From a candidate division CSSED10-310 bacterium (GTDB lineage Bacteria; CSSED10-310), in contig JAFGEQ010000002.1 of the NCBI GenBank assembly GCA_016931515.1, positions 26,278 through 90,277 of the forward strand: 64,000 nt of DNA, given 5' to 3'. The notes below the pieces were generated by a model. That model made no database searches, was not told where the DNA came from, and saw only the letters and a program-made list of their open reading frames with translations. Shown one piece after another: positions 12,920 to 42,776 of this stretch. The position numbers were made by a program, and so were the translations under genes. Each line of letters starts with the position of its first letter. Position 1 is the stretch's first letter.

Positions 12920-15415
12920 TTATCGCGTTGCTGGCAAGTGTGCATTCTTATCCGGTTTAAGTAAGGCTATTATTTTGGTTTTAACGGTTTCGGTCAAGGA
13001 TTCGTAGGACTCATCCCCAGGATAGACCGGATCCTGAAAAATCACCGACACGCGTCTGAATGGTCTTGGAAATCGTGCTCCCGGAGGAAGCGCTTCACGC
13101 GCTCCAATGATTGTCACCGGCACAACTGGAACTGAAAGCTCCCGACTTAATATAGCAAAAGTTTTTCTGAAATCGCCAATTTGGCCGTCCCGGCTTCGTG
13201 TTCCTTCGGGAAAAATCATTATGTTTCGTCCCTGTTTAAGAACAGATGCCAATTTCTGAAGTGACGCTTGAACATCCTTGTTAATATCCATGATAATCAC
13301 GTTGTGGCGGTCAGCGATAAATCGCAGGAGCCAGTTTTTCAAGTGTTTGGCTTTGGCATAGAAGTAGGTCTTGCTGAAATGCCGGTTTTTCAGGAATACA
13401 GCAACAAAAAGACCATCGATGTAACTCTGGTGATTGGGCGCGATGATAAACGGCCCATCAGGTAATGAATCAACATTCTCTGCGGATAACCGAAAATAGC
13501 ACTTCAAAAACAACTTGGCGATCAGTTTGAGTAAACGACTTGTTACCCAGGATCTCGGTAACTTGACGTGTGTCGTTTCCTTAAAAACGTCCGCCCAGTT
13601 GACTTCGGCTATATCGATCTGAGTTTTACGCTCCCTTACAAGTGTAGACAGTGCTCCAATGGAGGGTAGATTAGCGAGTTCCGTCTGATCGAGTTCGATG
13701 CCGAATGTTTTTTTCAAAAACACCTGGAATGTCACCTTGTCCAGGGAATCCATACCCAGAGAACTCTCCAGATGATCACCTGGAAGCACATCGCGACCAA
13801 CGAGGGCTGACAAGTAATTCCGGATTACCGTTTGTTCTTCGCTTTCCGGTAGGTCGCAGCCCGGTTCAAGCGGTTTCGCAGGAGGTGCCTGTACGTAGTT
13901 TTCCAGCATGAATCGCCGAAGTTTCCCCATACTGGTTCTGGGCAGTTCCGTGTTCACAATCGATAAGCCGTGGATTATTTTATGTGGAGTCGCTTCCCGG
14001 TTATATACATCAATGATTCGTGTACGAATCAAATGGTGAAGACTCACGCTATCATTATCATTCGACATCGCTGGAGCTGGCCGGATCAGGGCATGCAACC
14101 GGTCCTCAACCAGACAAATCGCCGCTTCTTCGATCATCGGATCCATCGCTTCCAGCACCACTTCTATTTCCACAGGATTGATGTTCTTACCATTGCTAAG
14201 TACGATGATCTCCTTCTTGCGCCCGGTAATGAACAGGTGACCGCTATCATCAAGGTAACCCAAATCCCCCGTATACAACCAGCCGTCTCTCAATATGTCG
14301 GAGGTCTCCCCCGGCCGGTTGTAATATCCTTTCATTATATTGGGTCCGGACGCGGTGATCTCACCCTGACGTATCTCAATCTGTGTCACCGGGAGTGCCT
14401 GTCCCGCCGAACCGGCAATAAAACCACCAGGGCGTGTAAATGTAATCATCGGAGCCGCTTCCGTCATCCCATACCCTTCAAGCACTTCAAATCCAAGAGT
14501 CCTGAAAAAAATCGCGGTTTCCGGATCCAGTCTCGATCCTCCGGAAACCATGTAACGAACCGCCCCACCAAAACCTCGTTGTACCGTCCCGAAAACCAAC
14601 CTGGAAATCGCTTGTTTATCAAGTCTACGGGCAATTCTGAATAAAACTCTCGGAACCATCGACGCTTCGATTTTAGCTTGTATTCCCTTACGGAAGGCTT
14701 CGTACAATCTGGGTACACCGATGATCATTGTGATTTTGTGTGCCTGTAATGTCTTCATTATATCAGCTGGTTGCAACGATGGAGAAAAAACGGCGGTGGA
14801 CCCAGCATACATGTTGATTACAACCGTTCCCAGAAGAGGAAAAATATGATGCAGTGGCAACAGAACGAGGATGTTATCGTTTGAATTATAAACCTTCACA
14901 TCACGTGATACGCCATCCGTGTTCGCCAGAATATTGCCAATAGACAACATGACACCCTTTGGACTGCCTGTTGTGCCGGATGTATACACTATCAATGCGA
15001 TACGATCCCGGTTACCGGGATTTTCGCAAGGACGCTGATCACTGCTTCCGGAAACAGGAACATCCTCCATCAGAATGATTGGAATCCCGAAACCGGACAG
15101 AGATATGGCTTTTTCAATTGTCTCGCGGGTCTGATGCGAGCATATGATGGCATCAGGTGAACAATCTTTCAGAATATAAGCAATATCCGATGCGTTGGAT
15201 TTGAAATCAACCGGAACAACCGTCGCTTCACAGTGCCAAATCGCATAAAAAGCATAAATCCATTCCGGTCGATTTTCAGCGCAAATCACAACCCGAAGCG
15301 GATTGTAATCCTGCAAGGATTTCGCAAAACTCAATATGGCACCAGCCAATTCAGAATAACTGACCGGCTTGTCCGCCGATATAATCGCCGGTTTATCAGG
15401 ATTATAATTTATCAT
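12920..15415 (-). CDS. Tri-domain fusion: acyl-AMP/CoA ligase, acyl-carrier (PP-binding) domain and 1-acyl-glycerol-3-phosphate acyltransferase (PlsC/LPLAT)
   Basis: Track ORF reaches 15490. The likely start is the ATG at ~15415 (MINYNPDKPAIIS). The AMP-binding core has YTSGTTGSPKGV; a phosphopantetheine attachment site reads LGMDSLD; the C-terminal LPLAT domain has the HX4D motif (NHQSYID) and an FPEGTRS block. Confidence 0.75.
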   Translation of the reverse strand: MINYNPDKPAIISADKPVSYSELAGAILSFAKSLQDYNPLRVVICAENRPEWIYAFYAIWHCEATVVPVDFKSNASDIAYILKDCSPDAIICSHQTRETIEKAISLSGFGIPIILMEDVPVSGSSDQRPCENPGNRDRIALIVYTSGTTGSPKGVMLSIGNILANTDGVSRDVKVYNSNDNILVLLPLHHIFPLLGTVVINMYAGSTAVFSPSLQPADIMKTLQAHKITMIIGVPRLYEAFRKGIQAKIEASMVPRVLFRIARRLDKQAISRLVFGTVQRGFGGAVRYMVSGGSRLDPETAIFFRTLGFEVLEGYGMTEAAPMITFTRPGGFIAGSAGQALPVTQIEIRQGEITASGPNIMKGYYNRPGETSDILRDGWLYTGDLGYLDDSGHLFITGRKKEIIVLSNGKNINPVEIEVVLEAMDPMIEEAAICLVEDRLHALIRPAPAMSNDNDSVSLHHLIRTRIIDVYNREATPHKIIHGLSIVNTELPRTSMGKLRRFMLENYVQAPPAKPLEPGCDLPESEEQTVIRNYLSALVGRDVLPGDHLESSLGMDSLDKVTFQVFLKKTFGIELDQTELANLPSIGALSTLVRERKTQIDIAEVNWADVFKETTHVKLPRSWVTSRLLKLIAKLFLKCYFRLSAENVDSLPDGPFIIAPNHQSYIDGLFVAVFLKNRHFSKTYFYAKAKHLKNWLLRFIADRHNVIIMDINKDVQASLQKLASVLKQGRNIMIFPEGTRSRDGQIGDFRKTFAILSRELSVPVVPVTIIGAREALPPGARFPRPFRRVSVIFQDPVYPGDESYESLTETVKTKIIALLKPDKNAHLPATR

Positions 15416-15517
15416 GGATTTTGTCTTCCTATACTTTAAGATATCCGACCTTCCCGCAGGCATTTTCAGCGTACACGCATGAAGCAGCACATGTCAACCG
15501 GCACTCATTAGCATCAA

Positions 15518-15607: not shown

Positions 15608-18600
15608 GTGCCATCGAACGATTTTATTCATCTTAATCTTCACACTTGTTTTTCGATGCTGGAAGGTGCGTCCGGCATTGAGTCGCTGGTTGCTGCTGCT
15701 GCCAGGGCGGAGATGCCGGTGCTGGCCGTTACAGATACGGATGGTTTGTACGGAGTTGTTCCATTCACCAGAATATGCCGGGAATATGGAATCCGGCCAA
15801 TTTATGGTGTCGAGTTGACTGAACCTTTTCATGGGGATCCAGCCCATTCAAAGCAGTTCTTTGATCGTCGCACGATGCGTCATGCCACTCTTTTGGCGAG
15901 GGATGAATCCGGTTACGAGGCTGTTTGTCGCATCATAACGGAACGCCATCTTAAAAAGGGCTTCAATTGGGAGTCGAGTGTCGCCGTGCTGCCGGAATCG
16001 GTATACGTGTTATCGTCCGATGAACGGCTTTTGCAGCTCAGAGCGGCAAACCGGCGACTTCAGAGTGCAACCCGGGTCGAGTTACGCCATTATGGCGGTC
16101 CGGTTTCCACGGAGAATCGGCGGCGACTCCTTGCATTAGCCGACCAACTCAAGATTCGGGCGGTCGCCACTAACGGTGTTCATTTCTGTGATGCTGCCGA
16201 GTATACCGTACATCGAATTCTCTGTGCGCTCCGAATGAATGCCACTATTGGTACGGTACCGGCTCATTCGGTGATGCCCCCTGCTGCAAGCCTGGTTACG
16301 GCGGCAGAGATGTTCGAACGGTTCAGCGCGTGCCCCGAGCCGCTACATGAGACCGTGAGGATTGCGCGGGAATGTGGCGTAAAGCTGGATCTGGGGGTGC
16401 GCCGGCTGCCACGATTCCCGGTACCCGGGAATGGGGATGCATACCGCTATCTCCGGGGTCTGGCGCTTCAGGGTTTGTCGGAGCGCTATGACAGCAAGAA
16501 TGCGATAGCCGCCCGGAATGTGTTGGAGCGTGAGTTGGGGGTTATTCAATCCATGCAGCTCGCTGACTATTTTTTGATTTGCCATGACATCATTCGCTTT
16601 GCGCGATCCCGCGGTTACCCCTGCCTGGGTCGTGGATCTGCCGCGAATTCAATTGTCTCGTATTGCCTGTATATCACTCATGTTGATCCTATCGTGCATA
16701 ATCTGTTTTTTGAACGATTTTTGAATGAACAGCGAACATCCCTGCCTGATTTTGATCTTGATTTCGGTACGGAGGATCGGGAGAAGGTCCTGGATTATAT
16801 CTTCTCGTTTTATGGCAGGGACCGGGTAGCGATGATCGGAACTCACGTGACATTCCAGGTGCGAAGTGCTTTCCGGGAAGTCGCGATTGCCCAGGGGTTG
16901 GCGAAGGGAGAGGTCGATGATTTTATCAAGCGTTTGCCGCACATTGCATCCGCAGAAAACCTGCACTCGAAGCTGGCGACATCGCCGGAAACCCGATCTC
17001 TGCCACTGACCACGGAGCCATTTGCATCGTTGCATAAAATTGCCGAGCGAATCAGCGGGTTTCCGCGTCATATCGGCACTCATCCCTGCGGTCTTGTTAT
17101 CACACCGGAGCCGCTGCAGCGGTTCATGCCACTGGAACTCGGCGAAAAGGGGTTGGCTGTAACGCAATGGACGATGAACCCGGTTGAGGAAGCGGGCTTG
17201 CTGAAAATTGATATTCTTGGGCAGAGGGGGTTGGAAGTAATTTCCTATACAGTCAAGGCTGTTCGGCAACAGGGAAAACCTGTGCCGTCGGATCCGAAGA
17301 CTTTTCTGACGGATGCCCGAACGCGGGAATGGCTTCGAAACGGCCGTTCCATCGGTTGTTTCTACATCGAAAGTCCCGCAATGATCAGTCTGATCCGTCA
17401 GGCTCGGTGCGATGACTTCGAATGTCTGACAGCACTCTCATCCATCATTCGTCCCGGTGTCTCCAATTACGGTGGCAAAAACACCTATCTCAGGCGGCAT
17501 TTGAAACTGGAAGCGGATACGGTTCTTCATCCGGTTCTGATACCGATTCTTCGCGATACCCGGGGATGCCTGATTTATCAGGAACAGGTTATCCGTATCG
17601 CATCGGAACTGGCGGGATTGACACTGGGTGAAGCCGATGATCTTCGACGTCTGATGTCCTTTAAAAAAAACCGGAAACGACTATCGGATTACCGGGAACG
17701 TTTTTTCGCTGGATGTCGAAGTAAAGACATTCCGGAACCGGTTATCGACGAGATTTATCGGCAAGTCGATTCGTTTGCTGGTTATGCCTTTTGCAAAGCG
17801 CATTCCGCCTCCTTCGCTCTCGAGTCTTTTGAGAGCATGTTTTACAAAACTCATCACCCGGCAGAATTCATGGCGGCAGTTCTTTCAGGTGGCGGCGGTT
17901 ACTATGGTTCTCTGGAGTATCTCGAAGAATCCCGCCGTCTCGGTCTGGCAATCCATCCTCCCTGTATTAATGGAAGTGAAATCCGATTCAGCGGTTATGA
18001 TGGACACCTGCGGGTTGGACTCATGCAAATCAAAGGACTTCGTGAATCCACCGCACATGCGATCGTCACCGCCAGACAAAAGCATGGGCCATTTCGCGAT
18101 CTTCCCGATCTTCTGATTCGTGTTCCGGATATAAAAATCGACGAGGCCAGGAACCTCGCAAAATGCGGTGGAATGCGTTCTCTTGGTCGAACCATCCCGG
18201 AAATTCTTTGGGGGGTCGAGATATTCTTCAAAATGGAAAAATCCCAGGATGCATCCGGCAACCTCCTCGAAGAAAACGATCCCAAACGACAGGCCGATAT
18301 CGAGCGGTCAAAAAAACTTTGGAATGCCGTACCTAATTATCCTGATCCAACTCTGGAAAAGCGACTGATATGGGAATTGGAAATCCTCGGCATGTCTCCT
18401 ACCGCCCATCCTCTCAGACTTTTCCACCGGGAGATATCACGCATTCGCAGATTGCGGCCTGTCATACGATCAGTAGATATGGGTGCTCGCGCCGGCCAGG
18501 CAACGTACATGCTGGGGTGGCGGATTATCGGGAAAAAAACCCGGACAAAACGTACCGGGGAGATGATGTCATTTATTACATTTTCAGATGAATGGGGGCG

Positions 18601-18844
18601 ATTCGAAGCCACTTTTTTTCCAAAATCATTTGAACAGAATGCCGTTGAGCTCCGAAAAGGATTTGGACCCTTCCTCTTGAAGGGGAGAGTGGATATGGAA
18701 TTCGGGGTTGCCACATTGGTCGTGGACAACGTCAAACTCATGTCGGAACAGCATCCTGCTGTGCGAGACACCCGCGGACCGCTCCGCCAACCGGAAGGTG
18801 TCCTGTCTGTATCGGAAAGAAAAGCGCTTTATTCGATTTCCTGA
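15608..18844 (+). CDS. dnaE2: DNA polymerase III alpha-subunit family, short DnaE2/ImuC-like (error-prone polymerase-like)
   Basis: 1078 aa with GTG start; N-terminal PHP domain (IHLNLHTCFSMLEGASGIE); polymerase core with FDLDFGTEDREKV; the length fits DnaE2 rather than the ~1160-aa replicative DnaE1, and there is no long C-terminal tau-binding extension. Confidence 0.75.
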   Translation: MPSNDFIHLNLHTCFSMLEGASGIESLVAAAARAEMPVLAVTDTDGLYGVVPFTRICREYGIRPIYGVELTEPFHGDPAHSKQFFDRRTMRHATLLARDESGYEAVCRIITERHLKKGFNWESSVAVLPESVYVLSSDERLLQLRAANRRLQSATRVELRHYGGPVSTENRRRLLALADQLKIRAVATNGVHFCDAAEYTVHRILCALRMNATIGTVPAHSVMPPAASLVTAAEMFERFSACPEPLHETVRIARECGVKLDLGVRRLPRFPVPGNGDAYRYLRGLALQGLSERYDSKNAIAARNVLERELGVIQSMQLADYFLICHDIIRFARSRGYPCLGRGSAANSIVSYCLYITHVDPIVHNLFFERFLNEQRTSLPDFDLDFGTEDREKVLDYIFSFYGRDRVAMIGTHVTFQVRSAFREVAIAQGLAKGEVDDFIKRLPHIASAENLHSKLATSPETRSLPLTTEPFASLHKIAERISGFPRHIGTHPCGLVITPEPLQRFMPLELGEKGLAVTQWTMNPVEEAGLLKIDILGQRGLEVISYTVKAVRQQGKPVPSDPKTFLTDARTREWLRNGRSIGCFYIESPAMISLIRQARCDDFECLTALSSIIRPGVSNYGGKNTYLRRHLKLEADTVLHPVLIPILRDTRGCLIYQEQVIRIASELAGLTLGEADDLRRLMSFKKNRKRLSDYRERFFAGCRSKDIPEPVIDEIYRQVDSFAGYAFCKAHSASFALESFESMFYKTHHPAEFMAAVLSGGGGYYGSLEYLEESRRLGLAIHPPCINGSEIRFSGYDGHLRVGLMQIKGLRESTAHAIVTARQKHGPFRDLPDLLIRVPDIKIDEARNLAKCGGMRSLGRTIPEILWGVEIFFKMEKSQDASGNLLEENDPKRQADIERSKKLWNAVPNYPDPTLEKRLIWELEILGMSPTAHPLRLFHREISRIRRLRPVIRSVDMGARAGQATYMLGWRIIGKKTRTKRTGEMMSFITFSDEWGRFEATFFPKSFEQNAVELRKGFGPFLLKGRVDMEFGVATLVVDNVKLMSEQHPAVRDTRGPLRQPEGVLSVSERKALYSIS

Positions 18845-19914
18845 ATGGTTCGCTTGCAGCGTAAGATTGTCAGGCTGCAATCTGTCATAACTTGTAATTT
18901 ATTCAGTGTGTCGACTTCTTCCATTAACGTAAAAGCTGATCGGGTTCCACCAATCGCTATACCGGTCAGTCGATGACTGATATGTATGGGGACAACCACA
19001 AACGCCTGCAACTCCTCCATGCGCAGCATCTTTGGTACCCATCTCATATCGTTCGAGTCGGACTCGAAACCGACATATTTGATTTCAGGATTTTGCAGAT
19101 ACTCGCTCCAAAACGGAATTTTCTGCAGCTTATCCAACAAAGGAACACCCTTGCTTCCACGCCGAAAATCCGCCACATCATTCCAAAAAAAGTTCTTGGC
19201 ATTGTCGAGAACCAAAAAGACCACGCGATCACAAAGCTGCTCCATAAATTGAAGAAAATATCCGACTGCTTCTTTGTTACCGGTTGCCTCCAGAAACAGA
19301 CTTTTCGTTTGAGTTCCCAGAATATTGGTCCTGTCGAACACGGTGAATTGCCCCGAATCTCCGAGAGCGACCAGGCTTTGATCGGTTTCATAGATTTCTT
19401 TATCAGCGGAATACTGGTTATCATGGACGATCAGATCCTGCATCATCGACGCTTCCACGGTCGCGTCCGCCCTGCCGACGGGATTGACTGCAATCTGGTA
19501 GTATTTCGCGAGCGCTCGATGCAGCAGTGATTCCATGCAGACATACGGCCTGATAATATATCCGGATTTATGAGACAGTTCATCGACAAGCTGAATATCA
19601 TCCGCCTCGAGCATGGCCACATGCATTCGCCGGCCCATCACCCTGAAAGGCACGACTCGATAGGATTGAACGAGCTCTCCCGATAGCTTCTGAATGACCT
19701 CATCCGGAATGTTCTCCAGATCAGACGGCATGGCTGCAGGAATCCCTTTCTGTAATGCCAGCATCTCACAAACCTGGGTCTCATCCATTAACATCATCTG
19801 TACCAGGTGTTCACCGAACCGCCCCCCGGACATACTTTGGCGCCTGAGGACTTTCTCCAGTTGGTCAGGAGTCAACAACCCCTGGTCAAGCAGTATTTCT
19901 CCCAGCTTCTTCAT
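18829..19914 (-). CDS. MshEN/GspE-N-terminal-domain protein, putative c-di-GMP receptor
   Basis: 361 aa; the N-terminus KLGEILLDQGLLTPDQLEKVLRRQ fits the 24-residue MshEN c-di-GMP-binding motif RLGxx(L/V/I)(L/V/I)xxG(L/F/V/I)(L/V/I)xxxx(L/V/I)xx(L/V/I/A)(L/V/I/F)xxQ at every position except R1->K; no ATPase domain follows. Confidence 0.6.
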   Translation of the reverse strand: MKKLGEILLDQGLLTPDQLEKVLRRQSMSGGRFGEHLVQMMLMDETQVCEMLALQKGIPAAMPSDLENIPDEVIQKLSGELVQSYRVVPFRVMGRRMHVAMLEADDIQLVDELSHKSGYIIRPYVCMESLLHRALAKYYQIAVNPVGRADATVEASMMQDLIVHDNQYSADKEIYETDQSLVALGDSGQFTVFDRTNILGTQTKSLFLEATGNKEAVGYFLQFMEQLCDRVVFLVLDNAKNFFWNDVADFRRGSKGVPLLDKLQKIPFWSEYLQNPEIKYVGFESDSNDMRWVPKMLRMEELQAFVVVPIHISHRLTGIAIGGTRSAFTLMEEVDTLNKLQVMTDCSLTILRCKRTIQEIE

Positions 19915-20136
19915 GGTCCCGGCCTCCTGCTTTGATTATACGGGAAAAAACTTTCTTGTGACAATGTCCACCGTATCGCAACCATGGATACATCCTTGAA
20001 AAAACTGCCAGTTCGCGAATCGCGCTCTGCCGGTTGAGTGTTTCACTAAGTTATTACATAATTCGAATCAAGCGTCCACAGATTTTGTGTACCACCGCCA
20101 AAATCGATTGTAATAAACACTATTCAGGAACAGCTC

Positions 20137-20964
20137 ATGTCTTTAGAAAATGTCGAAATTATCTTAGTTGAACCGATTTACCCGGGTAACATAGGTGCGA
20201 TTGCCCGATCCGCGTTTAATTATGATCTGAGCACAATCAAAATAATCGGACATGTCGACTATCTGTGCACAGAAGCTAAACAGATGTCCCTGTACGGCTA
20301 CCCCCTGCTTCAGAAAGCAGCCCGTTTTGATACACTCGCCCAGGCGGTGAAAGATTGCGATCTGGTCATCGGAACTGTCCAACAGGAACGGTACAACCGC
20401 CAACCTCCTCTGTCTGCTTCTCAGACTATGTCGGCCTATAAGAACCGGATACTGACCGGGCGGACGGCACTGGTTTTCGGGCGAGAGGACAACGGGTTGA
20501 CCCGCGAAGAAATCGATGTCTGCCATGTTCTGACGACACTTCCAACTCCAACCGGGTTAAGCTTCAATCTTGCCCATTCAGCCACTGTGTTCCTCTACGA
20601 GATGCATCGGGCAATCAATGGAGTTACCCCATACCGCGAACCACCTGCTCCTCCCCAAAGCGAATATGAAGACCTTTTCAGAGTCATCCGTTCCGCCCTT
20701 TTTAAGGTTGGCTTTTTTCGTCCTGACCGAAAAGTCAATACGATGATAAGGATCAGGGATGTGATTTACCGTATGAATCTTAACTCGTCAGATTTTCCGC
20801 TGTTAAAAGCGATATTTTTCAAAATTGACAGTTTCGCCTCACGCGCTTTTCCGCATCTTCCTCGAGACCTGTTCGACGATTGCACTATATACGGTCAGGA
20901 GGTCGAATTACCTGAACCTCCCAGTCCTCCATCTGATATTAACCACCTGTCAGGGTACCGGTAA
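20137..20964 (+). CDS. trmJ: SpoU/TrmH-family RNA 2'-O-methyltransferase (TrmJ-like)
   Basis: 275 aa; the N-terminus VEIILVEPIYPGNIGAIARSAFNY is the TrmJ/LasT signature; LVFGREDNGLTREE is the SPOUT block. Confidence 0.7.
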   Translation: MSLENVEIILVEPIYPGNIGAIARSAFNYDLSTIKIIGHVDYLCTEAKQMSLYGYPLLQKAARFDTLAQAVKDCDLVIGTVQQERYNRQPPLSASQTMSAYKNRILTGRTALVFGREDNGLTREEIDVCHVLTTLPTPTGLSFNLAHSATVFLYEMHRAINGVTPYREPPAPPQSEYEDLFRVIRSALFKVGFFRPDRKVNTMIRIRDVIYRMNLNSSDFPLLKAIFFKIDSFASRAFPHLPRDLFDDCTIYGQEVELPEPPSPPSDINHLSGYR

Positions 20965-23374
20965 TCCGGCTCGATAAATATTCCAGCACATCAATAGCTT
21001 CTGACTTTACTGTATCGCTGCCTGCAATCACAGGACCGATACAACCCGGACATCCATAACGGCATTCGCAACTTTTTACGGAATTACAGGCTTCCGTTAG
21101 AATAGTGGATGCTGTACGGAACAGTTGTTCACTCAACCCGATCCCCCCGGGGTACCGATCAAAAATAAAAAGATTGACGGTACCCCCGGATGGGGGCGGT
21201 TGACCATGGGTCTGAATCATGCCCAGATGATCCATTTGTACAGTCCAGTCGTGGTCGCATGCGACAACACAGGAGCCAATATCGCGCGGATCACTCATCA
21301 ACAGGACAGATGCCACACTGTGAATCGCTGTCAATGCGCCGATGAGACCGGCGGCTGGAGAAGCCGTCACTGATGGGTCCGTTCCATCTTCGCCGTTTAA
21401 AGGAACCGTAAACCATGCTGCAAAAGTGATCAGTTCCTGTTCAGGTAAGTTAACCGTCCCTGTTCCCAGCTGCTCCTGTGTGCCGAAACGCAGCTTTTTG
21501 TATCCGATAACCCGGCTTACAACCTTCACATCGCCCATGTGAACCGGACTCGACTTCGGAACACCGGGTTTTTCATCAAGAATCTGAATTTTTATCTGCT
21601 CGATCGGCGCTGTATAATAACCAGTGTCTAATGCGCGAATTCGGGCTTTGCAGTTTTCCAGATCAAGATTGAGTACAAGAAACTGCCGTGCGCCATGCAG
21701 ATATACTGCCTCCGGATGCAAAAGAAGATGAGCTGCACAGATATCGATCTCGCCAATGACTTCAGGATTTTCATCTGACTCTTCGACAATTATGACACTC
21801 TGTGAACTCACAGATCTCAGACTGACTTTTTCAGCTGGATAATCACCACCTGTGTAGAACCATCTGCCACCACTGTGTTGCACCTCCCCGGATGATTCCA
21901 GATACTCCAGAAACTCCTCCGTCACATCCAGACCGGCATATCTCTCCGAATCCATGAATGGCAATTCGAAGGCTGCACAGCGGATATGTGCAAGCAGTAT
22001 GAGCAGGTTATCCGGATTAATCAGTGCATGTTCCGCGGGTTGATTAAAGAAATACTCCGGGTTCCGGACAATGTATTGATCCAGGGGTGCAGCAGATGCA
22101 ATTACTACTGCCAATGATCGGTCTTCCCGGCGCCCGGCGCGACCCGCCCGTTGCCAGGTTGATGCAATCGTCCCAGGATAACCAGCCATTACGACAGCTC
22201 CCATATTGCCGATGTCAACACCCAGTTCCAGAGCTGATGTTGCGACAACACAGCGGATGCTGCCCTGCCGGAGACCTGATTCTATTTCCCGCCTCTCCCG
22301 TGGCAGGTAACCACCACGGTAGCCACGGATCATTCCCGGGTCAATGATATCTTTCATCAATTTCTTGAGTTCCAGAAGCAACAACTCAACATTTCGTCTG
22401 CTCCGTGCAAATATCAGCGTCTGAACGCCTTCTGCAAGAATTAGTCTGGAGAATCGCGTGGTCTCCTCCAAATATGATCGGCGGATCATGTCTGCCGAAT
22501 CAATGACCGGAGGATTATAGAAAATGACAACCTTTTCACCGGCTGGAGCACCTGATTCAGCGATCAAATGAACGGGTTCCCCGATCAGTCGTTCCGCAAA
22601 TTCAAGCGGATTGGCAATTGTGGCTGAACTCATAATGATCCGGGGATTGGATCCGTGAAATTGGCAGATTCTTCGTAATCGTCGGAACACATTGCATAAA
22701 TGACTCCCGAAAATTCCGCGGTATTGATGCAATTCATCGACCACAATGAACTCAAGATGCTGAAAAAAGGAGGCCCATCGGGCGTGATGAGGCAGGATTC
22801 CACTATGGATCATATCCGGATTGGTCAGCACTATTCGAGCTGCTTCACGGATTCTTTTACGATTCTCCGATGATGTGTCACCATCATAAATACACGGCTG
22901 GACTGTTTTTACCGCACCTCCGGTCATGTTTATCAATTCATGGTATTGATCCTGGGCGAGTGCCTTTGCGGGAAAAATATAAAGAGCTTTGGATTTTGGT
23001 TGAGTCATCAATCGATCGATTATCGGCAAATTGTAACATAAGGTTTTTCCAGATGCAGTCGGTGTTACAATCACGAGGTTCTCGCCTCTTCTAATCGCAT
23101 GCCATGCAAGCACCTGATGTGTATACAGTTTATCGATATGTCGATCTCTTATAATTTTCAGCAGTTCCGGATGGATGTCGGAAGGAAGAGGGCCATACTC
23201 CGGGTACTTGCGAGGCAATTGCTGGAGCGATGTAATTCCCGATGAAAATCGGGCATTTTTTACTTTTGTCAGGATCGTGCGGATTGGATCTTTGCTGTCA
23301 TCACACGGTTCCAGACCTTGTTTCGAACGGAGTTTTGATTCAGACGAACCTTCTCTTTCCGGATCAGTCTTCAT
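20939..23374 (-). CDS. DEAD/DEAH-box helicase with C-terminal DUF1998 (MrfA/YprA/Hrq1-like)
   Basis: 811 aa; Walker A (VIVTPTASGKT), DEAH-like (VVDELH) and helicase-C motifs; the C-terminal region has a 4-Cys cluster (CECRYGCPGC) as in the DUF1998 zinc domain. Confidence 0.75.
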   Translation of the reverse strand: MKTDPEREGSSESKLRSKQGLEPCDDSKDPIRTILTKVKNARFSSGITSLQQLPRKYPEYGPLPSDIHPELLKIIRDRHIDKLYTHQVLAWHAIRRGENLVIVTPTASGKTLCYNLPIIDRLMTQPKSKALYIFPAKALAQDQYHELINMTGGAVKTVQPCIYDGDTSSENRKRIREAARIVLTNPDMIHSGILPHHARWASFFQHLEFIVVDELHQYRGIFGSHLCNVFRRLRRICQFHGSNPRIIMSSATIANPLEFAERLIGEPVHLIAESGAPAGEKVVIFYNPPVIDSADMIRRSYLEETTRFSRLILAEGVQTLIFARSRRNVELLLLELKKLMKDIIDPGMIRGYRGGYLPRERREIESGLRQGSIRCVVATSALELGVDIGNMGAVVMAGYPGTIASTWQRAGRAGRREDRSLAVVIASAAPLDQYIVRNPEYFFNQPAEHALINPDNLLILLAHIRCAAFELPFMDSERYAGLDVTEEFLEYLESSGEVQHSGGRWFYTGGDYPAEKVSLRSVSSQSVIIVEESDENPEVIGEIDICAAHLLLHPEAVYLHGARQFLVLNLDLENCKARIRALDTGYYTAPIEQIKIQILDEKPGVPKSSPVHMGDVKVVSRVIGYKKLRFGTQEQLGTGTVNLPEQELITFAAWFTVPLNGEDGTDPSVTASPAAGLIGALTAIHSVASVLLMSDPRDIGSCVVACDHDWTVQMDHLGMIQTHGQPPPSGGTVNLFIFDRYPGGIGLSEQLFRTASTILTEACNSVKSCECRYGCPGCIGPVIAGSDTVKSEAIDVLEYLSSRITGTLTGG

Positions 23375-24539
23375 ACAGGAGAAACGGTTGCCTCATTCGT
23401 TGAAAATTCTTTTCATCCTTGTGCCATCGTTCCTGAATATCAAGCAGCGAGGTGCCGGTCTCTATTTCCCGGCGCAACGTCGAGTTCCCCGCTAAAATGT
23501 CAAATGGCAGCTTGACATATTCATACTCATAAGGAGGCAGTTTCCATTGGAATTGCGTCGGGTAGAGATCCCTCAGAACTTTAATTATGGCAACAGCGGT
23601 CAAAACCGGTTTGAATACAGTTCGATCAGTAACATGAATCTGGATTCCGCCGCATGGTTCACCTTTGAATTTCTGGAATGTGGGTCTGAACATGAGTTCT
23701 CTGAATCGGACACCGGGAAGCCTGTAATCTACCATAGCGCAAAGAAATCGACGAGGATCGATGAATGGAGCTCCAACTATCTCGAAAGGACGAGTCGTAC
23801 CCCGTCCTTCCGAAATATTGGTTCCTTCTATCAGGCACATCCCGGGATAAACAGTTGCCGTGGCCAACGTCGGCATATTGGGAGAGGGAATCACCCAGGG
23901 AACACCCGTGTCATCAAACCACATTTTACGTGTCCATCCTGTCATTGAGATTACATCCAAATCACAGCCTATCTCAAAGCATTCATTAAACATTCTGGCT
24001 AATTCACCACATGTCATACCATGCCGATTGGGAATGGGATACATGCCAACAAACGATGTATACCCACTCTCAACCACGGATCCTTCGATCTCAATCCCAT
24101 TCAATGGATTGGGACGATCCAGAACGATCATCTTCTTATGATCCCTGGCGCATGCCTTCATGACATTCGCCATGGTGTATATAAAGGTATAATATCGTGC
24201 CCCGACATCCTGAATGTCGAATACCATGGCATCAACATATTCCATCATCTCTTCCGTCGGAATCCGGGTTTCTCCATAAAGACTGAAAAACGGAAGACCG
24301 GTATTATGATCTCGATAACTGTGCCACTCCACCATGTTATCCTGAGTATGACCGAAAATTCCATGTTGCGGTCCGAATACCGCCGTCAGGAACGCAGCCG
24401 GATGATTCATTAATCGATGCATCGTGTGCTCAAATGTATGATCAACCGAAGTGGCGTTACTAACTAATCCAAGCCTGATTCCGCGGTATCTTTCTATCTC
24501 CGAATCCAAAAACCGATAGAGTCCATGTCTGACGTCCAC
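23364..24539 (-). CDS. DUF1343 family protein (exo-beta-N-acetylmuramidase NamZ/YbbC-like)
   Basis: 391 aa; the N-terminal RLGLVSNATSVD block is characteristic of DUF1343/NamZ. Confidence 0.6.
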   Translation of the reverse strand: MDVRHGLYRFLDSEIERYRGIRLGLVSNATSVDHTFEHTMHRLMNHPAAFLTAVFGPQHGIFGHTQDNMVEWHSYRDHNTGLPFFSLYGETRIPTEEMMEYVDAMVFDIQDVGARYYTFIYTMANVMKACARDHKKMIVLDRPNPLNGIEIEGSVVESGYTSFVGMYPIPNRHGMTCGELARMFNECFEIGCDLDVISMTGWTRKMWFDDTGVPWVIPSPNMPTLATATVYPGMCLIEGTNISEGRGTTRPFEIVGAPFIDPRRFLCAMVDYRLPGVRFRELMFRPTFQKFKGEPCGGIQIHVTDRTVFKPVLTAVAIIKVLRDLYPTQFQWKLPPYEYEYVKLPFDILAGNSTLRREIETGTSLLDIQERWHKDEKNFQRMRQPFLLYED

Positions 24540-36725: not shown

Positions 36726-39700
36726 TTGGATTATCAGGCAAATCCAAACCAAAGGGATAACACGATGCATTTACCAAAAGAGTTACACGAAACCTACTCA
36801 ATTAGTGACGATCTGGGTGAAGATAGTCTGGGTAAATTATTAAGAGTAAAAAATAAAAGCAACGACACCATGCATCTCATGCGACTGATGCGAATATCAG
36901 GAAATGACCGGTTATTATCAGCTGAAATGAATTCCGACCTGGCACTATGGGCTGATCTCCATTATCATAGTGTCTCGTTTATCCGGGAGTTCTTGGATAT
37001 AAATGATTCTCACATTGCAGTAATTATGGATAACCGCCCCGGCATCAGACTAAGCACGGTGTGGAATGACATGCTACGCAAGGTTTCTGATGCAGATACA
37101 TTTATTCAAGAAATCGGTTCCGGGATTGAGTACATGCATCTGAATGGCATACGGCATTTATTCGTAAACCCGGACACGATACTTATCGACACAAGGGACG
37201 GCTCACGAGCTTTCTATCTGACCGATTGCGGACTGCTTGAGTTTCTTGAATGGACCACCCGATTTAATCTTCCAAAACCTGATGATTTTCCGGCTCTTGA
37301 ATTCATGAGCCCTGAGTTTGTTTCAGGGGAGCGATCAGATCTCAGAAGCGATCTCTACTCGTTCGGTACGGTCATATATCAACTTCTCACTGGTATCAAT
37401 CCGTTTCAATCAGACACTGCTACAGCAACAATTTCGGCTCATCTGAACCGGTTGATTAACCAACCCAAAGATTTAAACAGCGAAATCTCCGATAAATTGA
37501 ATATGTCAGTCATGAAGCTTCTCGAGAAAAACCCCGGATATCGACCCAGTAGTCTGATTAAGCATTTCGGTATTACATTTGAATCTGATGACTCTCAGGA
37601 AGTGCATTATTCCCTCTTGAATTCCTATTCTATTGATCATCCGCTTCCATTACAGGAGATCCGTTCAGCATTCGAAAAAGCATGCAATGGATCAGGGAGT
37701 GTTCTGGTGCTTGTTGGCGATACCGGGATCGGAAAAAGTCGTCTGCTGGAGGGAGTTGAATCTGAATTTCGGCTTTCAGGCGTAAACCCGATAATTATAC
37801 AGGCTTTCCCCAATTCGGATACTGAATGCGGATGCGGTGTCCTACGATCCGTTTTCAAAGCATTACACCATTTTTATCCAAAGCTGGAACCGGACGTCAT
37901 CGATCAGATGTATCCTCCTGATTTTGAAAAAAACTATCTTCAAATCTCAGATGCACTCTTTCAAGAGGCTGTTTTGCAGAGCTGTGCCAGACATATTTTG
38001 AAAGCTATTTTCGACAGGATTCAAGGAGATCAAGCGGTTCCTTGTGTTGTGATTCTCAAAGACTGCTTTTTCTCGGACAGTATTTTCTGGGGGTTTTTCC
38101 GCACGCTGGCACGACTGTTATCTGAGAAGGCCATTGGAAATGTTCCTTGTCTTTGGCTTGTCGAGACCCGGGATATTGAATCCGGTTTCATTAGAGTAAA
38201 AGGCAATGACGCCATTAAGCCGATTGAACTGGTTACATGTAATCGAGAAACCGTAATTAAAATCCTGGCTTCAGGTTTTGGTTTGGAATCAGTTCCAGAG
38301 ATGTTGACTGATTGGGTGATGGAGTTATCTGAAGGGAATTTCCAGACCATTGATCAGATGATAACAATGCTGCGTTACACCGGCATCCTTTCCCTGAAAG
38401 ATGATATCTATACAATAAACGATAATACATGGCATACGGTAAGAACTCATTGCAAAGATCTGAATCAGTTTACAGATTATGTAATCGATCATTACATGAC
38501 TCCTCCCATGCGTCTCGTTCTGACCCATTTATCTTTATGGCCGCATGGATGCTCACTGATCAATTTATCCCTGACAATGGACCTGGACACCTCAACCCGT
38601 AAGTTTTTTCATTGGTTGCTTTTTTCCGAATGGGTACGGAAGACAAGAGTGGAAGGGTCGTTCATCTACAAGATTCGATATCCTGTTCTACAGGAACGAT
38701 TTCTCAGAGCAACACCCGATTACCAGAAATCCAGATGGCATCAACGAATTGCCGATCAACTGTGTGACCGGCAGGGAGCTCTATCAACCATAGTCGCTGA
38801 GCATTATTTCAGCGCCGATAATCGTCTCCATGGATGCGAACATGCTTTGTCGGCTGCGATGCATTATCGTGACCGGCAATGTCTGGAAAAATCCCGGTTC
38901 TGGTTCACACGGATCCTTGAGAGCATGCCCGAGCGCAATCGAACTAAAATAACCCAGATAAGCTTTGAATATGCCAAGGTCTTGATAGCCGACAAGGACT
39001 TTTCCAAAGCACACGTGACGCTGTCTCAGGCGGAATCATTCCTCGAGTCACGATTCCATCATAAACGCGACAAAGCAGATTACCTCCTCCTTCGCGGCAT
39101 ATGCAGCTTCCATCTTGAAGATAACAATCAGGCTGTTTCATTCTTACTGGATGCTCTGAAAATGTTACCTCGAACAACTGCTCATGAATACCGGCTGAAG
39201 ATTCTTTTCTTTTTGGCACAAATTTGCGAAAAACTAAATGATTTTGAAGGACTTATCGTCCATTTCACAAATCTTCAGAAGTTACTTCCGCTGCGGAATT
39301 ATCCTTTTTTCGCAGGTCGACTTTTGGGTATTGTTGAACGGGCGTACCAGGAACTGCAGCAATACACAACCGCAGAATTTTACTTGAAAGAATCGATTCT
39401 TTTCGGCGAAACCACTGGTGATCATATATTTTTGTTAAACCAAAACCTTCGTTTGGGCCAGATTTATGAGCGGACAGGAAAATATCGTCTGGCAAGTGAA
39501 TCTTACGACCGCGTGATAAGACTGAGTAGAAAATACGTTCATTCTCGGTTGTTATGTGATGGCTTATGCCATCTGGCCAATCTGCACATGCTGTACAGTC
39601 AACAGGAACTTGCCCAAGGATTGCTGGCTGAAGCACTTCAATTATCTGAGAAGCTAAATGAACAACGTCTCTATGTCTGGAGCAGCTTTTTGCTATCCTC

Positions 39701-41861: not shown

Positions 41862-41936
41862 TTCCTTGACGTTTTGGAGAGCAAGACCTATGATCGTGAG
41901 GGATAGTGGTAGTGAGACCTGGTGGGACATAGATCA

Positions 41937-42776
41937 ATGAAAGTCACAGCATATGGGGCAACCGATTTGGGGATGCGGCGACCTGTTAATGAGGACAGTT
42001 TCCGGCTTTGTCCTGCTGTCCAGCTTTTCCTTGTGGCAGATGGGATGGGAGGCCACGCTGCTGGTCATGTGGCAAGCCGTATGGCGGTGAACGAAGTTGC
42101 GGAATTTATTGAATCGCACCTTTTGGGTGGAACTGATGATCGGGACGATGATTCGGATTATACTCAAATTCTAGTTGAGGCACTTCAAGCTGCCAATCAG
42201 TATATTATTACCGCAACACATCACCGAAAAGATCTCCGGGGAATGGGAACAACTCTAGTTGTAGTCTTGATTCGAGGAAGAAAACTATATGCTGCCAGTG
42301 TCGGAGACAGCCGGCTGTATTTAATTCGCCAGGAAGAAGTGAAACTGCTCACAACCGATCACTCGTGGGTTAATATGCAGGTGCAACTGGGCAATATGAC
42401 GTCGGAGGAATCACGGCTTCACCCGATGAGAAATGTAATCACTCGAGCGTTGGGAACACAATTACAGGTAGAAGTCGATACTCTTGTTCAGTTGCTCGAG
42501 GCGGGTGACTGCTTGGTTATGTGTACCGATGGTTTAAGCAATATGTTGAGTGATAAAGAGATTGCACTGAGTGTACTTCATCATGAGACTGATTTGAAGC
42601 AAGCAGTGGAAGAATTAATCCAACGTGCAAACATGCGGGGTGGGGATGACAATATCACCACTGTCGTTTTGAAAATCCAGGATGATATTGAATCCAATGA
42701 GCATTACGCTCAAGATACTGAAGTTATGTTTATACGTCCTATCAAACCCGGGAAAAACTCAACGGAACAGGATTGA
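41937..42776 (+). CDS. PP2C-family Ser/Thr protein phosphatase (Stp1/PrpC-like)
   Basis: Track ORF 41922..42776 with the likely ATG at ~41937 (MKVTAYGATDLGMRRPVNEDSF); metal-binding motifs LVADGMGGHAAG and DGLSNMLSD, and a DDNITTVV-like C-terminal block. Confidence 0.8.
   Translation: MKVTAYGATDLGMRRPVNEDSFRLCPAVQLFLVADGMGGHAAGHVASRMAVNEVAEFIESHLLGGTDDRDDDSDYTQILVEALQAANQYIITATHHRKDLRGMGTTLVVVLIRGRKLYAASVGDSRLYLIRQEEVKLLTTDHSWVNMQVQLGNMTSEESRLHPMRNVITRALGTQLQVEVDTLVQLLEAGDCLVMCTDGLSNMLSDKEIALSVLHHETDLKQAVEELIQRANMRGGDDNITTVVLKIQDDIESNEHYAQDTEVMFIRPIKPGKNSTEQD

Follow-up and report, generated by a model that had tools for sequence, protein, structure and literature searches.

What does a protein do that carries an MshEN motif, a module that mostly sits at the N-terminus of GspE, PilB and MshE ATPases, when no ATPase follows it? 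The question is raised by one open reading frame in the 64-kb stretch of DNA analysed here (64,000 nucleotides, hereafter the window). A preliminary description of this DNA had placed the frame at 18829-19914, and it is present at 18829..19914 on the minus strand, with an ATG start and 361 amino acids plus stop. In a MAG of candidate division CSSED10-310 the identical protein, MBN1878522.1, carries the label 'hypothetical protein'. The complete CDS encodes an MshEN domain, a linker and a GAF-like domain.

An intact gene without an ATPase

The gene has expression signals of its own. A sigma-70-like promoter, TTGTCA-18-TATAAT, was picked up by the promoter scan at 19935..19964 on the minus strand (11 of 12 positions, a consensus match only), and a Shine-Dalgarno sequence, AGGAGG, lies 8 nt 5' of the ATG (19923..19928, minus strand). 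With its own predicted promoter and Shine-Dalgarno sequence, and with a 3' end that abuts a convergent gene, the gene is best taken as a single-gene unit. Strong purifying selection acts across the whole gene. Compared with an 88%-identity orthologue, pN was 0.076 and pS 0.75 for the entire coding sequence, and pN was lower than pS in all three regions taken singly. In the linker and the GAF-like part dS has reached saturation, so no dN/dS is given for these two regions.

The absence of ATPase motifs behind the MshEN motif, as first described, is borne out. In the Pfam search no T2SSE ATPase family matched the protein even at E<=10, and direct reading of the 361-aa sequence found no Walker A motif of the form GxxxxGK[ST]. 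The PilB model TIGR02538 covers aa 3-168, corresponding to profile positions 1-166 of 564 only, and the phmmer matches in the PDB end at about aa 165. Given the usual place of MshEN in such enzymes, the TIGR02538 match could be read as the trace of a disrupted GspE/PilB/MshE ATPase gene, leaving a pseudogene fragment. The chance of this is negligible. Similarity to the ATPase occurs nowhere in the protein, full-length orthologues of the same size are found at 44-88% identity among 13 matches, pN is far below pS, and the C-terminal module is predicted to be well folded and is common to more than 100 other protein clusters. There is also no room downstream for an ATPase remnant since the neighbouring dnaE-type gene overlaps the stop codon. 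The conserved GAF-like domain, the purifying selection and the same-length orthologues together rule out a GspE pseudogene fragment. A C-terminal part derived from a broken GspE gene was one of the two outcomes that the preliminary description had named as fatal to its reading; a conserved GAF-like domain was found there instead.

The MshEN domain and its c-di-GMP motifs

By profile and alignment, residues 1-142 are predicted to form a complete MshEN domain. The NCBIfam model of the 53-residue MshE-type c-di-GMP motif, NF053729, has a cutoff of 38 bits and scored 55.2 bits over aa 3-55 (E 4.5e-15); Pfam MshEN, PF05157, whose cutoff is 23.1 bits, reached 40.5 bits over aa 66-141. Both scores exceed the curated cutoffs, so the profile check proposed for the N-terminus came out in favour of MshEN. 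In a phmmer search against the PDB, PilF, PilB and MshE matched aa 2-165 through their N-terminal GSPII/MshEN domains, at E values between 3.7e-30 and 1.6e-07; the best stretch was the PilF GSPII-A domain, a non-binder. The C-terminal subdomain, which is T2SSE_N1-like, occupies aa ~62-142 (19489..19731, minus strand) and includes the PF05157 match. In the full-length AF2 model this subdomain has an alpha/beta pattern with pLDDT 73-93, and the four-helix MshEN_N part is of low confidence (pLDDT 44-58). No other segment of the protein is as strongly conserved as MshEN_N, whose mean column identity is 0.85. The estimate of ~250 aa following the motif has to be revised, as MshEN takes up 142 aa and leaves ~220 aa of non-MshEN sequence.

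Motif I, KLGEILLDQGLLTPDQLEKVLRRQ, spans aa 3-26 (19837..19908, minus strand) and lies inside the NF053729 match. The consensus applied was (R/K/L)LGxx(L/V/I)(L/V/I)xxG(L/V/I)(L/V/I)xxxxLxxxLxxQ, which the motif fits; all positions of the strict consensus are met except for R1->K, and K1 is permitted by both the relaxed [RKPN] class and the extended consensus. The lysine is kept in 11 of the 11 orthologues that include the N-terminus, and it is the commonest residue at this position in the family (54 of 104 representatives). In Thermus PilF GSPII-B, which also has K at position 1 of motif I, the KD is 6 nM, as compared with ~92 nM in the K167R mutant (PMC11731258). Since K is the commonest residue in the family and gives tighter binding than R in PilF GSPII-B, the R1->K change is no defect. 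The original statement that the motif fits save for R1->K was thus accurate for KLGEILLDQGLLTPDQLEKVLRRQ, the only strict mismatch there, but it drew attention to the majority state of the family, whereas it is motif II that holds the relevant deviations.

The search for a second half-motif, suggested earlier, found it exactly 5 residues after motif I. The spacer, SMSGG, was read from the sequence at aa 27-31 (19822..19836, minus strand), and five residues is the canonical spacing between MshEN motifs (PMC5013675). Motif II, RFGEHLVQMMLMDETQVCEMLALQ, was read likewise at aa 32-55 (19750..19821, minus strand). This 24 + 5 + 24 arrangement is conserved in all orthologues, and Gly3, Leu21 and Gln24 are kept in both motifs. 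Motif II retains R1, G3, L6, V7, L11, L21 and Q24 and deviates at positions 2, 10 and 17 (L2->F, G10->M and L17->V). The relaxed 'hydrophobic' classes alone admit F2 and V17, and M10 falls outside even the relaxed [GAS]. Of 104 related proteins, 89 have G at position 10 and none has M; the presence of M or L there is peculiar to the CSSED10-310 orthologue clade. The protein shows none of the disabling changes of the XpsE type that PMC5013675 lists.

Two structures allow a closer comparison. Vibrio cholerae MshE (PDB 5HTL; Wang et al. 2016, PMC5013675) likewise has the 24 + 5 + 24 motif followed by a T2SSE_N1-like subdomain, with the Gly3, Leu and Gln24 positions conserved, and the window protein aligns to 5htl with E 1.6e-07. 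It differs from MshE in lacking the C-terminal T2SSE ATPase, in opening motif I with K rather than R, in having F2, M10 and V17 in motif II, and in beginning its motif at residue 3, almost without an N-terminal basic tail. Thermus thermophilus PilF GSPII-B (PDB 8pdk and related; PMC11731258) resembles the window protein in being of MshEN type with a lysine at position 1 of motif I, and in PilF this lysine stacks hydrophobically on the guanine and confers nanomolar affinity (PMC11731258). PilF, however, has three GSPII domains before an ATPase, motif II of its GSPII-B starts with L and is one residue shorter, and both GSPII-A and GSPII-C give a better alignment with the window protein than GSPII-B does.

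From these comparisons we infer c-di-GMP binding by the MshEN domain. The domain (aa 1-142) would most likely bind one monomeric c-di-GMP, with K3 and R32 capping both guanines and two hydrophobic triads, L4/V48/L52 and F33/L19/L23, stacking beneath them. Binding would be expected to reorient the N- and C-subdomains of MshEN, as seen in PilF GSPII-B. A purely scaffolding or interacting role for the MshEN fold, as in XpsE and PilF GSPII-A, with any ligand sensing left to the GAF-like domain, is rather unlikely. The clade-specific changes in motif II (G10->M, L2->F and L17->V) would suit such a role, as would the best PDB stretch being that of the non-binding GSPII-A, an example showing that a conserved consensus motif is by itself no guarantee of c-di-GMP binding (PMC12002112). 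Against it, the curated c-di-GMP-motif HMM was exceeded by 17 bits, the predicted ligand contacts are kept (G3 and Q24 of both motifs, K/R at position 1), both Leu triads remain hydrophobic, the contact residues are conserved in orthologues down to 44% identity, and MshEN_N is under the highest conservation noted above. Because motif I begins at residue 3, an occluding N-terminal helix extension as in GSPII-A is absent as well. On the other side, a regular-expression search of the ORFs of the 64-kb window found no GGDEF, EAL, HD-GYP or PilZ signature, so that the window itself gives no sign of c-di-GMP metabolism, a result that says little about the whole genome.

The GAF-like domain and the family that shares it

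The MshEN domain is followed by a linker of aa 143-198 (19321..19488, minus strand), which AF2 predicted poorly (pLDDT 32-45). Towards its end, at aa ~186-198, the linker holds an invariant stretch, D/G-S-G-Q-F-x-x-x-D-R-x-x-I, in which G188, Q189, F190, D194 and I198 are invariant among orthologues; a similar motif, ED-R-G-x-F-x-x-x-E-R, occurs in one sub-clade of distant relatives.

Residues 199-361 (18832..19320, minus strand), ending in a final helix of ~33 residues, are modelled as a divergent GAF-like domain of the sensor or interaction type. The C-terminal domain prediction called for in the preliminary description thus returned a GAF-like fold, on the combined evidence of AF2, Foldseek and profile comparison. 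The AF2 model of the domain has pLDDT 92.1 and pTM 0.89. In the Foldseek search of the PDB, GAF domains ranked top (3o5y, E 3.7e-6; 3oov, TM 0.61), the top neighbours having probability 1.0 and TM 0.55-0.61. A family profile, A3, to which the window domain is tied through the relatives P0021 (59 bits) and P0089 (35 bits), matched 2m7u and 4fof (E 4e-6) and also 3vv4, 6p58 and 3oov; the full set runs from E 4e-6 to 2e-4, and the matches cover almost the entire domain. None of the Pfam GAF models PF01590, PF13185 and PF13492 matched the protein, its C-terminal 214 aa or its C-terminal 163 aa; a faint match to NreA was obtained for the protein (E 0.044). Among 39 relatives, sub-threshold matches to Pfam GAF, GAF_2 and GAF_3 were seen in 9, 7 and 3, respectively. 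Like canonical GAFs (3o5y, 3oov, 3p01 and the cyanobacteriochrome 2m7u/4fof), the domain has an N-terminal helix pair, an antiparallel sheet and a C-terminal helix, and the 'vPl...g..iGvl' hairpin is present too. It departs from them in lacking a Pfam GAF match, in TM-scores of 0.5-0.6, and in showing no recognised chromophore- or cNMP-binding signature. W244 and P309 are invariant family-wide and E215, D229 and D237 are invariant within the clade, all of them in or near the core of the domain.

What such a domain does is a matter of speculation, as is the identity of its partner. Since an enzymatic or DNA-binding module is absent, the output would have to be a protein-protein interaction, that of an adaptor. 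We suggest that the subdomain movement in MshEN could be relayed through the conserved linker to the GAF-like domain (aa 199-361), which would then associate with itself, or bind a partner protein, differently; a second small ligand on the GAF-like domain might gate the output too. The last point leads to a possible, though doubtful, variant in which the GAF-like domain binds a small molecule of its own, such as a cyclic nucleotide, a metabolite or an acyl compound, and the protein reports its coincidence with c-di-GMP. Small-molecule binding is common among GAF domains, the structural neighbours include the cAMP-bound Lcd1 GAF (5w10), PDE GAFs and LuxR-type AHL-binding domains, and the invariant residues in or near the core would agree with such a role. 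These similarities are tempered by the TM-scores of just 0.5-0.6 at 10-18% sequence identity; a known ligand-binding signature such as NKFDE was not found, and many GAF domains only dimerise. The reading we prefer, and consider somewhat better than an even bet, is a cytoplasmic, monocistronically expressed two-domain c-di-GMP effector made of an MshEN receptor and a GAF-like adaptor output. The core of the early proposal stands: the protein is an intact, stand-alone MshEN protein other than an ATPase, and it probably acts as a c-di-GMP receptor or adaptor.

Full-length orthologues are confined to candidate phylum CSSED10-310; a related-loci search with alignment A1 returned only 4 loci, all from CSSED10-310-type MAGs. 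The MshEN + GAF-like architecture itself is far more widespread. It was found in 126 of 161 fetched proteins, and no fewer than 110 other clusters at 50% identity have it, Desulfuromonas being one of the sources. The representative-library search used the full-length query and gave 9281 matches at E<=0.001, dominated by MshEN, so that the size of the family can be stated as a lower bound only. Uncharacterised 'GspE/PulE/PilB domain-containing proteins' of ~335-450 aa, such as Desulfuromonas sp. WP_291315151.1 (P0030 cluster), share the architecture: MshEN, a variable linker, a ~150-aa GAF-like domain and a conserved final helix (LILKNKIL-type, as compared with LTILRCKRTIQ in the window protein). 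Identity to the window protein is 23-27% overall and 9-21% within the GAF-like domain. Unlike the window protein, these relatives have G at position 10 of motif II, often have long, low-complexity linkers, and do not lie beside dnaE. The gene neighbourhoods of the distant relatives P0021, P0030, P0031 and P0089 had no common theme, and with neighbours so inconsistent no partner can be named.

MshEN joined to a non-ATPase partner has been documented since 2016 (PMC5013675). Escherichia coli NfrB (GT2-MshEN; PMC8669469), Myxococcus xanthus FrgA (MshEN-UNK-HEAT) and MshEN-REC proteins all place MshEN, as a c-di-GMP input module, on a non-ATPase output, and such proteins are tabulated in Suppl. 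Table 4 of PMC5013675. The partner domain in the window protein is neither enzymatic, unlike that of NfrB, nor a receiver, unlike that of MshEN-REC. With fusions known since 2016 and this exact architecture common in sequence databases, MshEN on a non-ATPase protein is not unusual, and the initial view of a stand-alone MshEN protein as a departure from the norm does not hold. No characterised stand-alone MshEN-GAF protein was found in the literature searched. The protein is therefore plausible rather than exceptional, a member of a large, widespread and experimentally unstudied family.

The convergent dnaE-type gene and the meaning of the locus

The 3' end of the gene overlaps by 16 nt (18829..18844) that of a convergent dnaE-type gene (15608..18844, plus strand), just as the preliminary description had stated. 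Its label 'DnaE2-like' for the polymerase is not supported. The error-prone model NF004225 scored 603.7 bits, below its cutoff of 939 and below the 708.8 bits of the DnaE model NF004226, and upstream of the polymerase gene, in place of imuA and imuB, lies a divergent AMP-binding/acyltransferase gene.

Among the neighbours, the dnaE orthologue alone is conserved in 10 of the 10 distinct orthologous loci, and it is always convergent. The overlap is again exactly 16 nt in 7 distinct orthologous loci (L001, L005, L011, L012, L013, L016 and L017), all of them read to both gene ends; in L003, which holds the 44%-identity orthologue, a gap of ~75 nt to dnaE replaces the overlap. An MrfA-type repair helicase gene lies two genes away in the window, in L012 and in L013. 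Such an arrangement invites a functional tie to DnaE, for example through replication or repair being controlled by c-di-GMP, or through mutual transcriptional interference across the 16-nt overlap. We regard this as very improbable. Convergent genes are not co-transcribed, every locus comes from a single candidate phylum, and neither the distant relatives nor the CSSED10-310 paralogue P0021 adjoin dnaE. The synteny requires no functional link, because overlapping 3' ends alone block rearrangement between the two genes. It is just as hard to credit the protein with regulating the chromosomal replicase, or repair, in a c-di-GMP-dependent manner in candidate phylum CSSED10-310, although a physical interaction or an antisense or transcriptional-interference link with dnaE, if true, would tie second-messenger signalling to DNA replication.

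For locus 18829..19914 alone, the gain from the two-domain effector reading is mainly a better annotation. If c-di-GMP binding is true, the uncultured candidate phylum CSSED10-310 gains a predicted c-di-GMP effector. On a wider scale, a single divergent type of GAF-like output domain, which falls below the Pfam GAF thresholds, recurs in many of the non-ATPase MshEN proteins closest to this one, and the MshEN + GAF-like proteins look like a sizeable class of putative c-di-GMP effectors without a characterised member. One characterised member would aid the annotation of many 'GspE N-terminal domain-containing' hypothetical proteins.

A stand-alone MshEN domain and its putative ligand-contact motifs

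The ORF list confirms a real gene at 18829..19914 of the minus strand, with an ATG start and a product of 361 aa (the MshEN-GAF gene). The N-terminus of its product reads MK-KLGEILLDQGLLTPDQLEKVLRRQ-SMSGG-RFGEHLVQMMLMDETQVCEMLALQ, in which two 24-residue MshEN-type motifs, motif I (aa 3-26) and motif II (aa 32-55), are separated by the canonical five-residue spacer SMSGG. NF053729, a curated NCBIfam model for the MshE-type c-di-GMP motif of 53 residues, matches aa 3-55 with 55.2 bits (cutoff 38, E 4.5e-15), and the Pfam MshEN model PF05157 matches aa 66-141 with 40.5 bits against a cutoff of 23.1. In a phmmer search of PDB sequences, aa 2-165 aligned with GSPII/MshEN domains, namely those of PilF from T. 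thermophilus (E 3.7e-30), of PilB proteins (E about 1e-15) and of V. cholerae MshE 5HTL (E 1.6e-07). Residues 1-142 thus constitute a complete MshEN domain with both its N and C subdomains, and the similarity is far above a chance motif resemblance. The preliminary description of the locus, which had recognized an MshEN-type N-terminus followed by no ATPase motifs, was correct on both counts: the protein has no similarity to the T2SSE ATPase in Pfam at E<=10, its sequence contains no Walker A motif, and it matches only the first 166 of the 564 positions of the PilB equivalog model.

The same description regarded R1->K in motif I as the sole blemish. Lys occupies this position in every one of the 11 orthologues whose sequence covers the N-terminus, and among 104 non-orthologous proteins of the same architecture it is commoner than Arg (54 versus 42). 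The relaxed search motif of Wang et al. allows [RKPN] at position 1 (PMC5013675). The equivalent lysine of PilF GSPII-B, K167, stacks on guanine and gives a KD of 6 nM, whereas the K167R mutant binds more weakly with a KD of about 92 nM; on this basis the MshEN consensus was widened to take in Lys at position 1 (PMC11731258). R1->K is thus no blemish. The real deviations from the consensus sit in motif II, the second half-motif, which carries L2->F, G10->M and L17->V. Position 2 is Phe in the MshEN-GAF protein and Leu in some orthologues. Position 10 is Gly in 89 of the 104 relatives and Met in none, Met or Leu at this position being confined to the clade of the MshEN-GAF protein. None of the disabling substitutions given for the non-binder XpsE occurs in the protein. 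Motif conservation makes it probable, short of proof, that the MshEN domain binds c-di-GMP.

The GAF-like C-terminal domain and the linker

In the full-length AF2 model from 12 sequences (pLDDT 70), the MshEN_C subdomain is confidently predicted, the linker at aa 143-198 is disordered (pLDDT 32-45) and the C-terminal domain is folded, with an alpha/beta pattern. An HMM of the C-terminal region built from the family only detected significant homology in the fetched related proteins P0021 (59 bits), P0089 (35 bits) and P0031 (26 bits). Upon iteration the HMM converged on a domain of ~150 residues that forms the C-terminus in 126 of the 161 fetched proteins, which are essentially the top matches of an exhaustive representative search plus the orthologues. 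The proteins with the closest MshEN are therefore mostly 335-450-aa combinations of MshEN with this same C-terminal domain, not ATPases. A 39-sequence alignment of the domain was used for profile searches and for an AF2 model of aa 199-361, which was of high confidence (pLDDT 92.1, pTM 0.89). The profile matched the solved GAF domains 2m7u and 4fof (E 4e-6) as well as 3vv4, 6p58 and 3oov, and sub-threshold Pfam matches were found among the 39 members to GAF_2 in nine, GAF in seven and GAF_3 in three, with no match to these models for the MshEN-GAF protein itself. In Foldseek searches of the PDB with the model, GAF domains ranked top (3o5y, E 3.7e-6, followed by 3p01, 3eea, 3oov and 5w10) with TM-scores of 0.5-0.6, and related LuxR-type ligand-binding domains were also among the matches. 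On the predicted fold and the profile-level relationship we term aa 199-361 GAF-like, but the domain passes none of the Pfam GAF models.

Within an otherwise variable linker, the stretch G-Q-F-x-x-x-D-R-x-x-I (aa 186-198, DNA about 19321-19359) is invariant. It falls in a low-confidence region of the AF2 model and resembles the 'EDRGxFxxxERxDF' of one distant sub-clade (P0031, P0036, P0063, P0103, P0037 and P0107).

Gene integrity and genomic neighbourhood

A search of 5.8 billion proteins returned 13 homologues, eight of them near-full-length (359-361 aa) with 58-88% identity and one of 346 aa with 44%; an identical copy in a candidate division CSSED10-310 MAG is annotated 'hypothetical protein'. 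Compared with the 88% orthologue, pN is 0.076 and pS 0.75 (saturated); taken separately, the MshEN, linker and GAF-like parts each also show pN far below pS. Upstream lies a promoter close to the consensus (TTGTCA-18-TATAAT, 19964..19935, minus strand), and an AGGAGG Shine-Dalgarno sequence is read 8 nt before the ATG. The gene is real and independent. The alternative that it is a pseudogene, a fragment of a disrupted GspE gene, is refuted by the intact orthologues, the low pN relative to pS and the GAF-like nature of the C-terminal domain. The annotated P0012, a related protein of only 227 aa, is without MshEN; tblastn on its contig (L015, PWNJ01000234.1) covers query residues 1-361 at 57% identity, and the deposited gene call is probably too short, owing to a misassigned start or a frameshift.

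The convergent gene (15608..18844, plus strand) encodes a DnaE-type Pol III alpha subunit of 1078 aa with PHP, DNA_pol3_alpha, finger, HHH and OB domains. Its earlier label, 'DnaE2-like', is unsupported: the DnaE model NF004226 (708.8 bits) outscores the error-prone DnaE2 model (603.7 bits), both under their equivalog cutoffs, and no imuA/imuB lies upstream of the gene in the window. The 16-nt overlap already noticed between the two genes (18829-18844) holds, with identical length in all seven distinct orthologous loci for which both gene ends were read (L001, L005, L011, L012, L013, L016 and L017), although the overlapping bases differ; in L003 alone, the locus of the 44%-identity orthologue, the two genes are instead about 75 nt apart. 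With a convergent gene overlapping it at the 3' end, the MshEN-GAF gene is a single-gene unit. The dnaE orthologues, 64-82% identical across CSSED10-310 MAGs and more conserved than the MshEN-GAF gene, stand tail-to-tail with it in 10 of 10 distinct orthologous loci, while the other neighbours vary. We read this synteny as inherited, not functional, because overlapping 3' ends themselves resist rearrangement and all loci come from one phylum; a functional link with dnaE is of low probability.

Within 20137-24539, upstream, lie a divergent TrmJ-like SpoU methyltransferase gene (plus strand), a minus-strand MrfA/Hrq1-type DEAD helicase gene with an MZB zinc domain, whose best NCBIfam match is TIGR03817 ('helicase/secretion neighborhood putative DEAH-box helicase', below cutoff), and a minus-strand gene for the exo-muramidase NamZ. 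This trio accompanies the orthologue in L012 and L013, not in L001, L005 and L011, where the divergent neighbour is instead a 785-788-aa protein with no Pfam match on record. Divergent from dnaE is a gene (12920-15490, minus strand) for an 856-aa AMP-binding, phosphopantetheine-binding and acyltransferase fusion, which resembles Aas-type acyl-ACP synthetase/lysophospholipid acyltransferases. Farther away are a 1711-aa protein (36726-41861, plus strand) with an N-terminal Ser/Thr kinase, AAA_16/TPR (MalT-like), a sigma-54 activator AAA+ and a Fis-type HTH, followed by a PP2C phosphatase gene (41922-42776). FlhA (FHIPEP, 692 bits; 46918-48984) and an FlhB family export-gate protein (50257-51336) are both encoded on the minus strand about 27-31 kb from the MshEN-GAF gene, and the organism thus possesses an export apparatus of the flagellar or T3SS type, which is among the classic targets of c-di-GMP control. 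No GGDEF, EAL, HD-GYP or PilZ signature is recognizable within the 64-kb window. The neighbourhoods of distant family members have no common theme, P0021 being the exception. This second, paralogue-like MshEN + GAF-like protein of the same candidate phylum (L006 3294-4331, CSSED10-310 MAG JAFGDC010000609.1), whose GAF-like domain gave the 59 bits on the orthologue-only HMM, is encoded directly upstream of FliH-, sigma-70-, FliF-, T3SS-ATPase (FliI)- and FliJ-like genes.

Proposed mechanism and relation to known MshEN proteins

By homology to 5HTL and PilF GSPII-B, the MshEN domain would bind one c-di-GMP, with K3 and R32 capping the guanines, the triads L4/V48/L52 and F33/L19/L23 stacked under them, G5 and G34 reading the Hoogsteen edges through their backbone amides, and the phosphates in contact with Q26 and Q55. 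Subdomain reorientation may then be relayed via the linker, with its invariant stretch, to the GAF-like domain and alter its dimerisation or partner binding. That the output is a protein-protein interaction is speculative; it would have to be one because catalytic and DNA-binding modules are absent. The GAF-like domain may, in addition, bind a second ligand. The MshEN + GAF-like architecture itself is established, and the ligand-relay model is, as a whole, the most likely. Of the dedicated c-di-GMP receptor or adaptor proposed in the preliminary description, the stand-alone non-ATPase architecture stands, binding is probable and the adaptor output is conjectural.

MshEN has been known with non-ATPase partners since 2016, including REC, HD-GYP, glycosyltransferase, CheA/CheX, kinase and 'UNK' domains and GAF-MshEN-T2SSE (PMC5013675, main text and Suppl. 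Table 4), but the stand-alone MshEN + GAF-like architecture is absent from that list, and the literature searched yielded no characterised example. It is abundant in databases, for example in Desulfuromonas, under names such as 'GspE/PulE/PilB domain-containing protein'. The MshEN-GAF protein is a lineage-specific member with a clade-specific G10->M in motif II and a fixed dnaE adjacency. The locus chiefly improves annotation and points to a large, as yet uncharacterised class of presumed c-di-GMP effectors.
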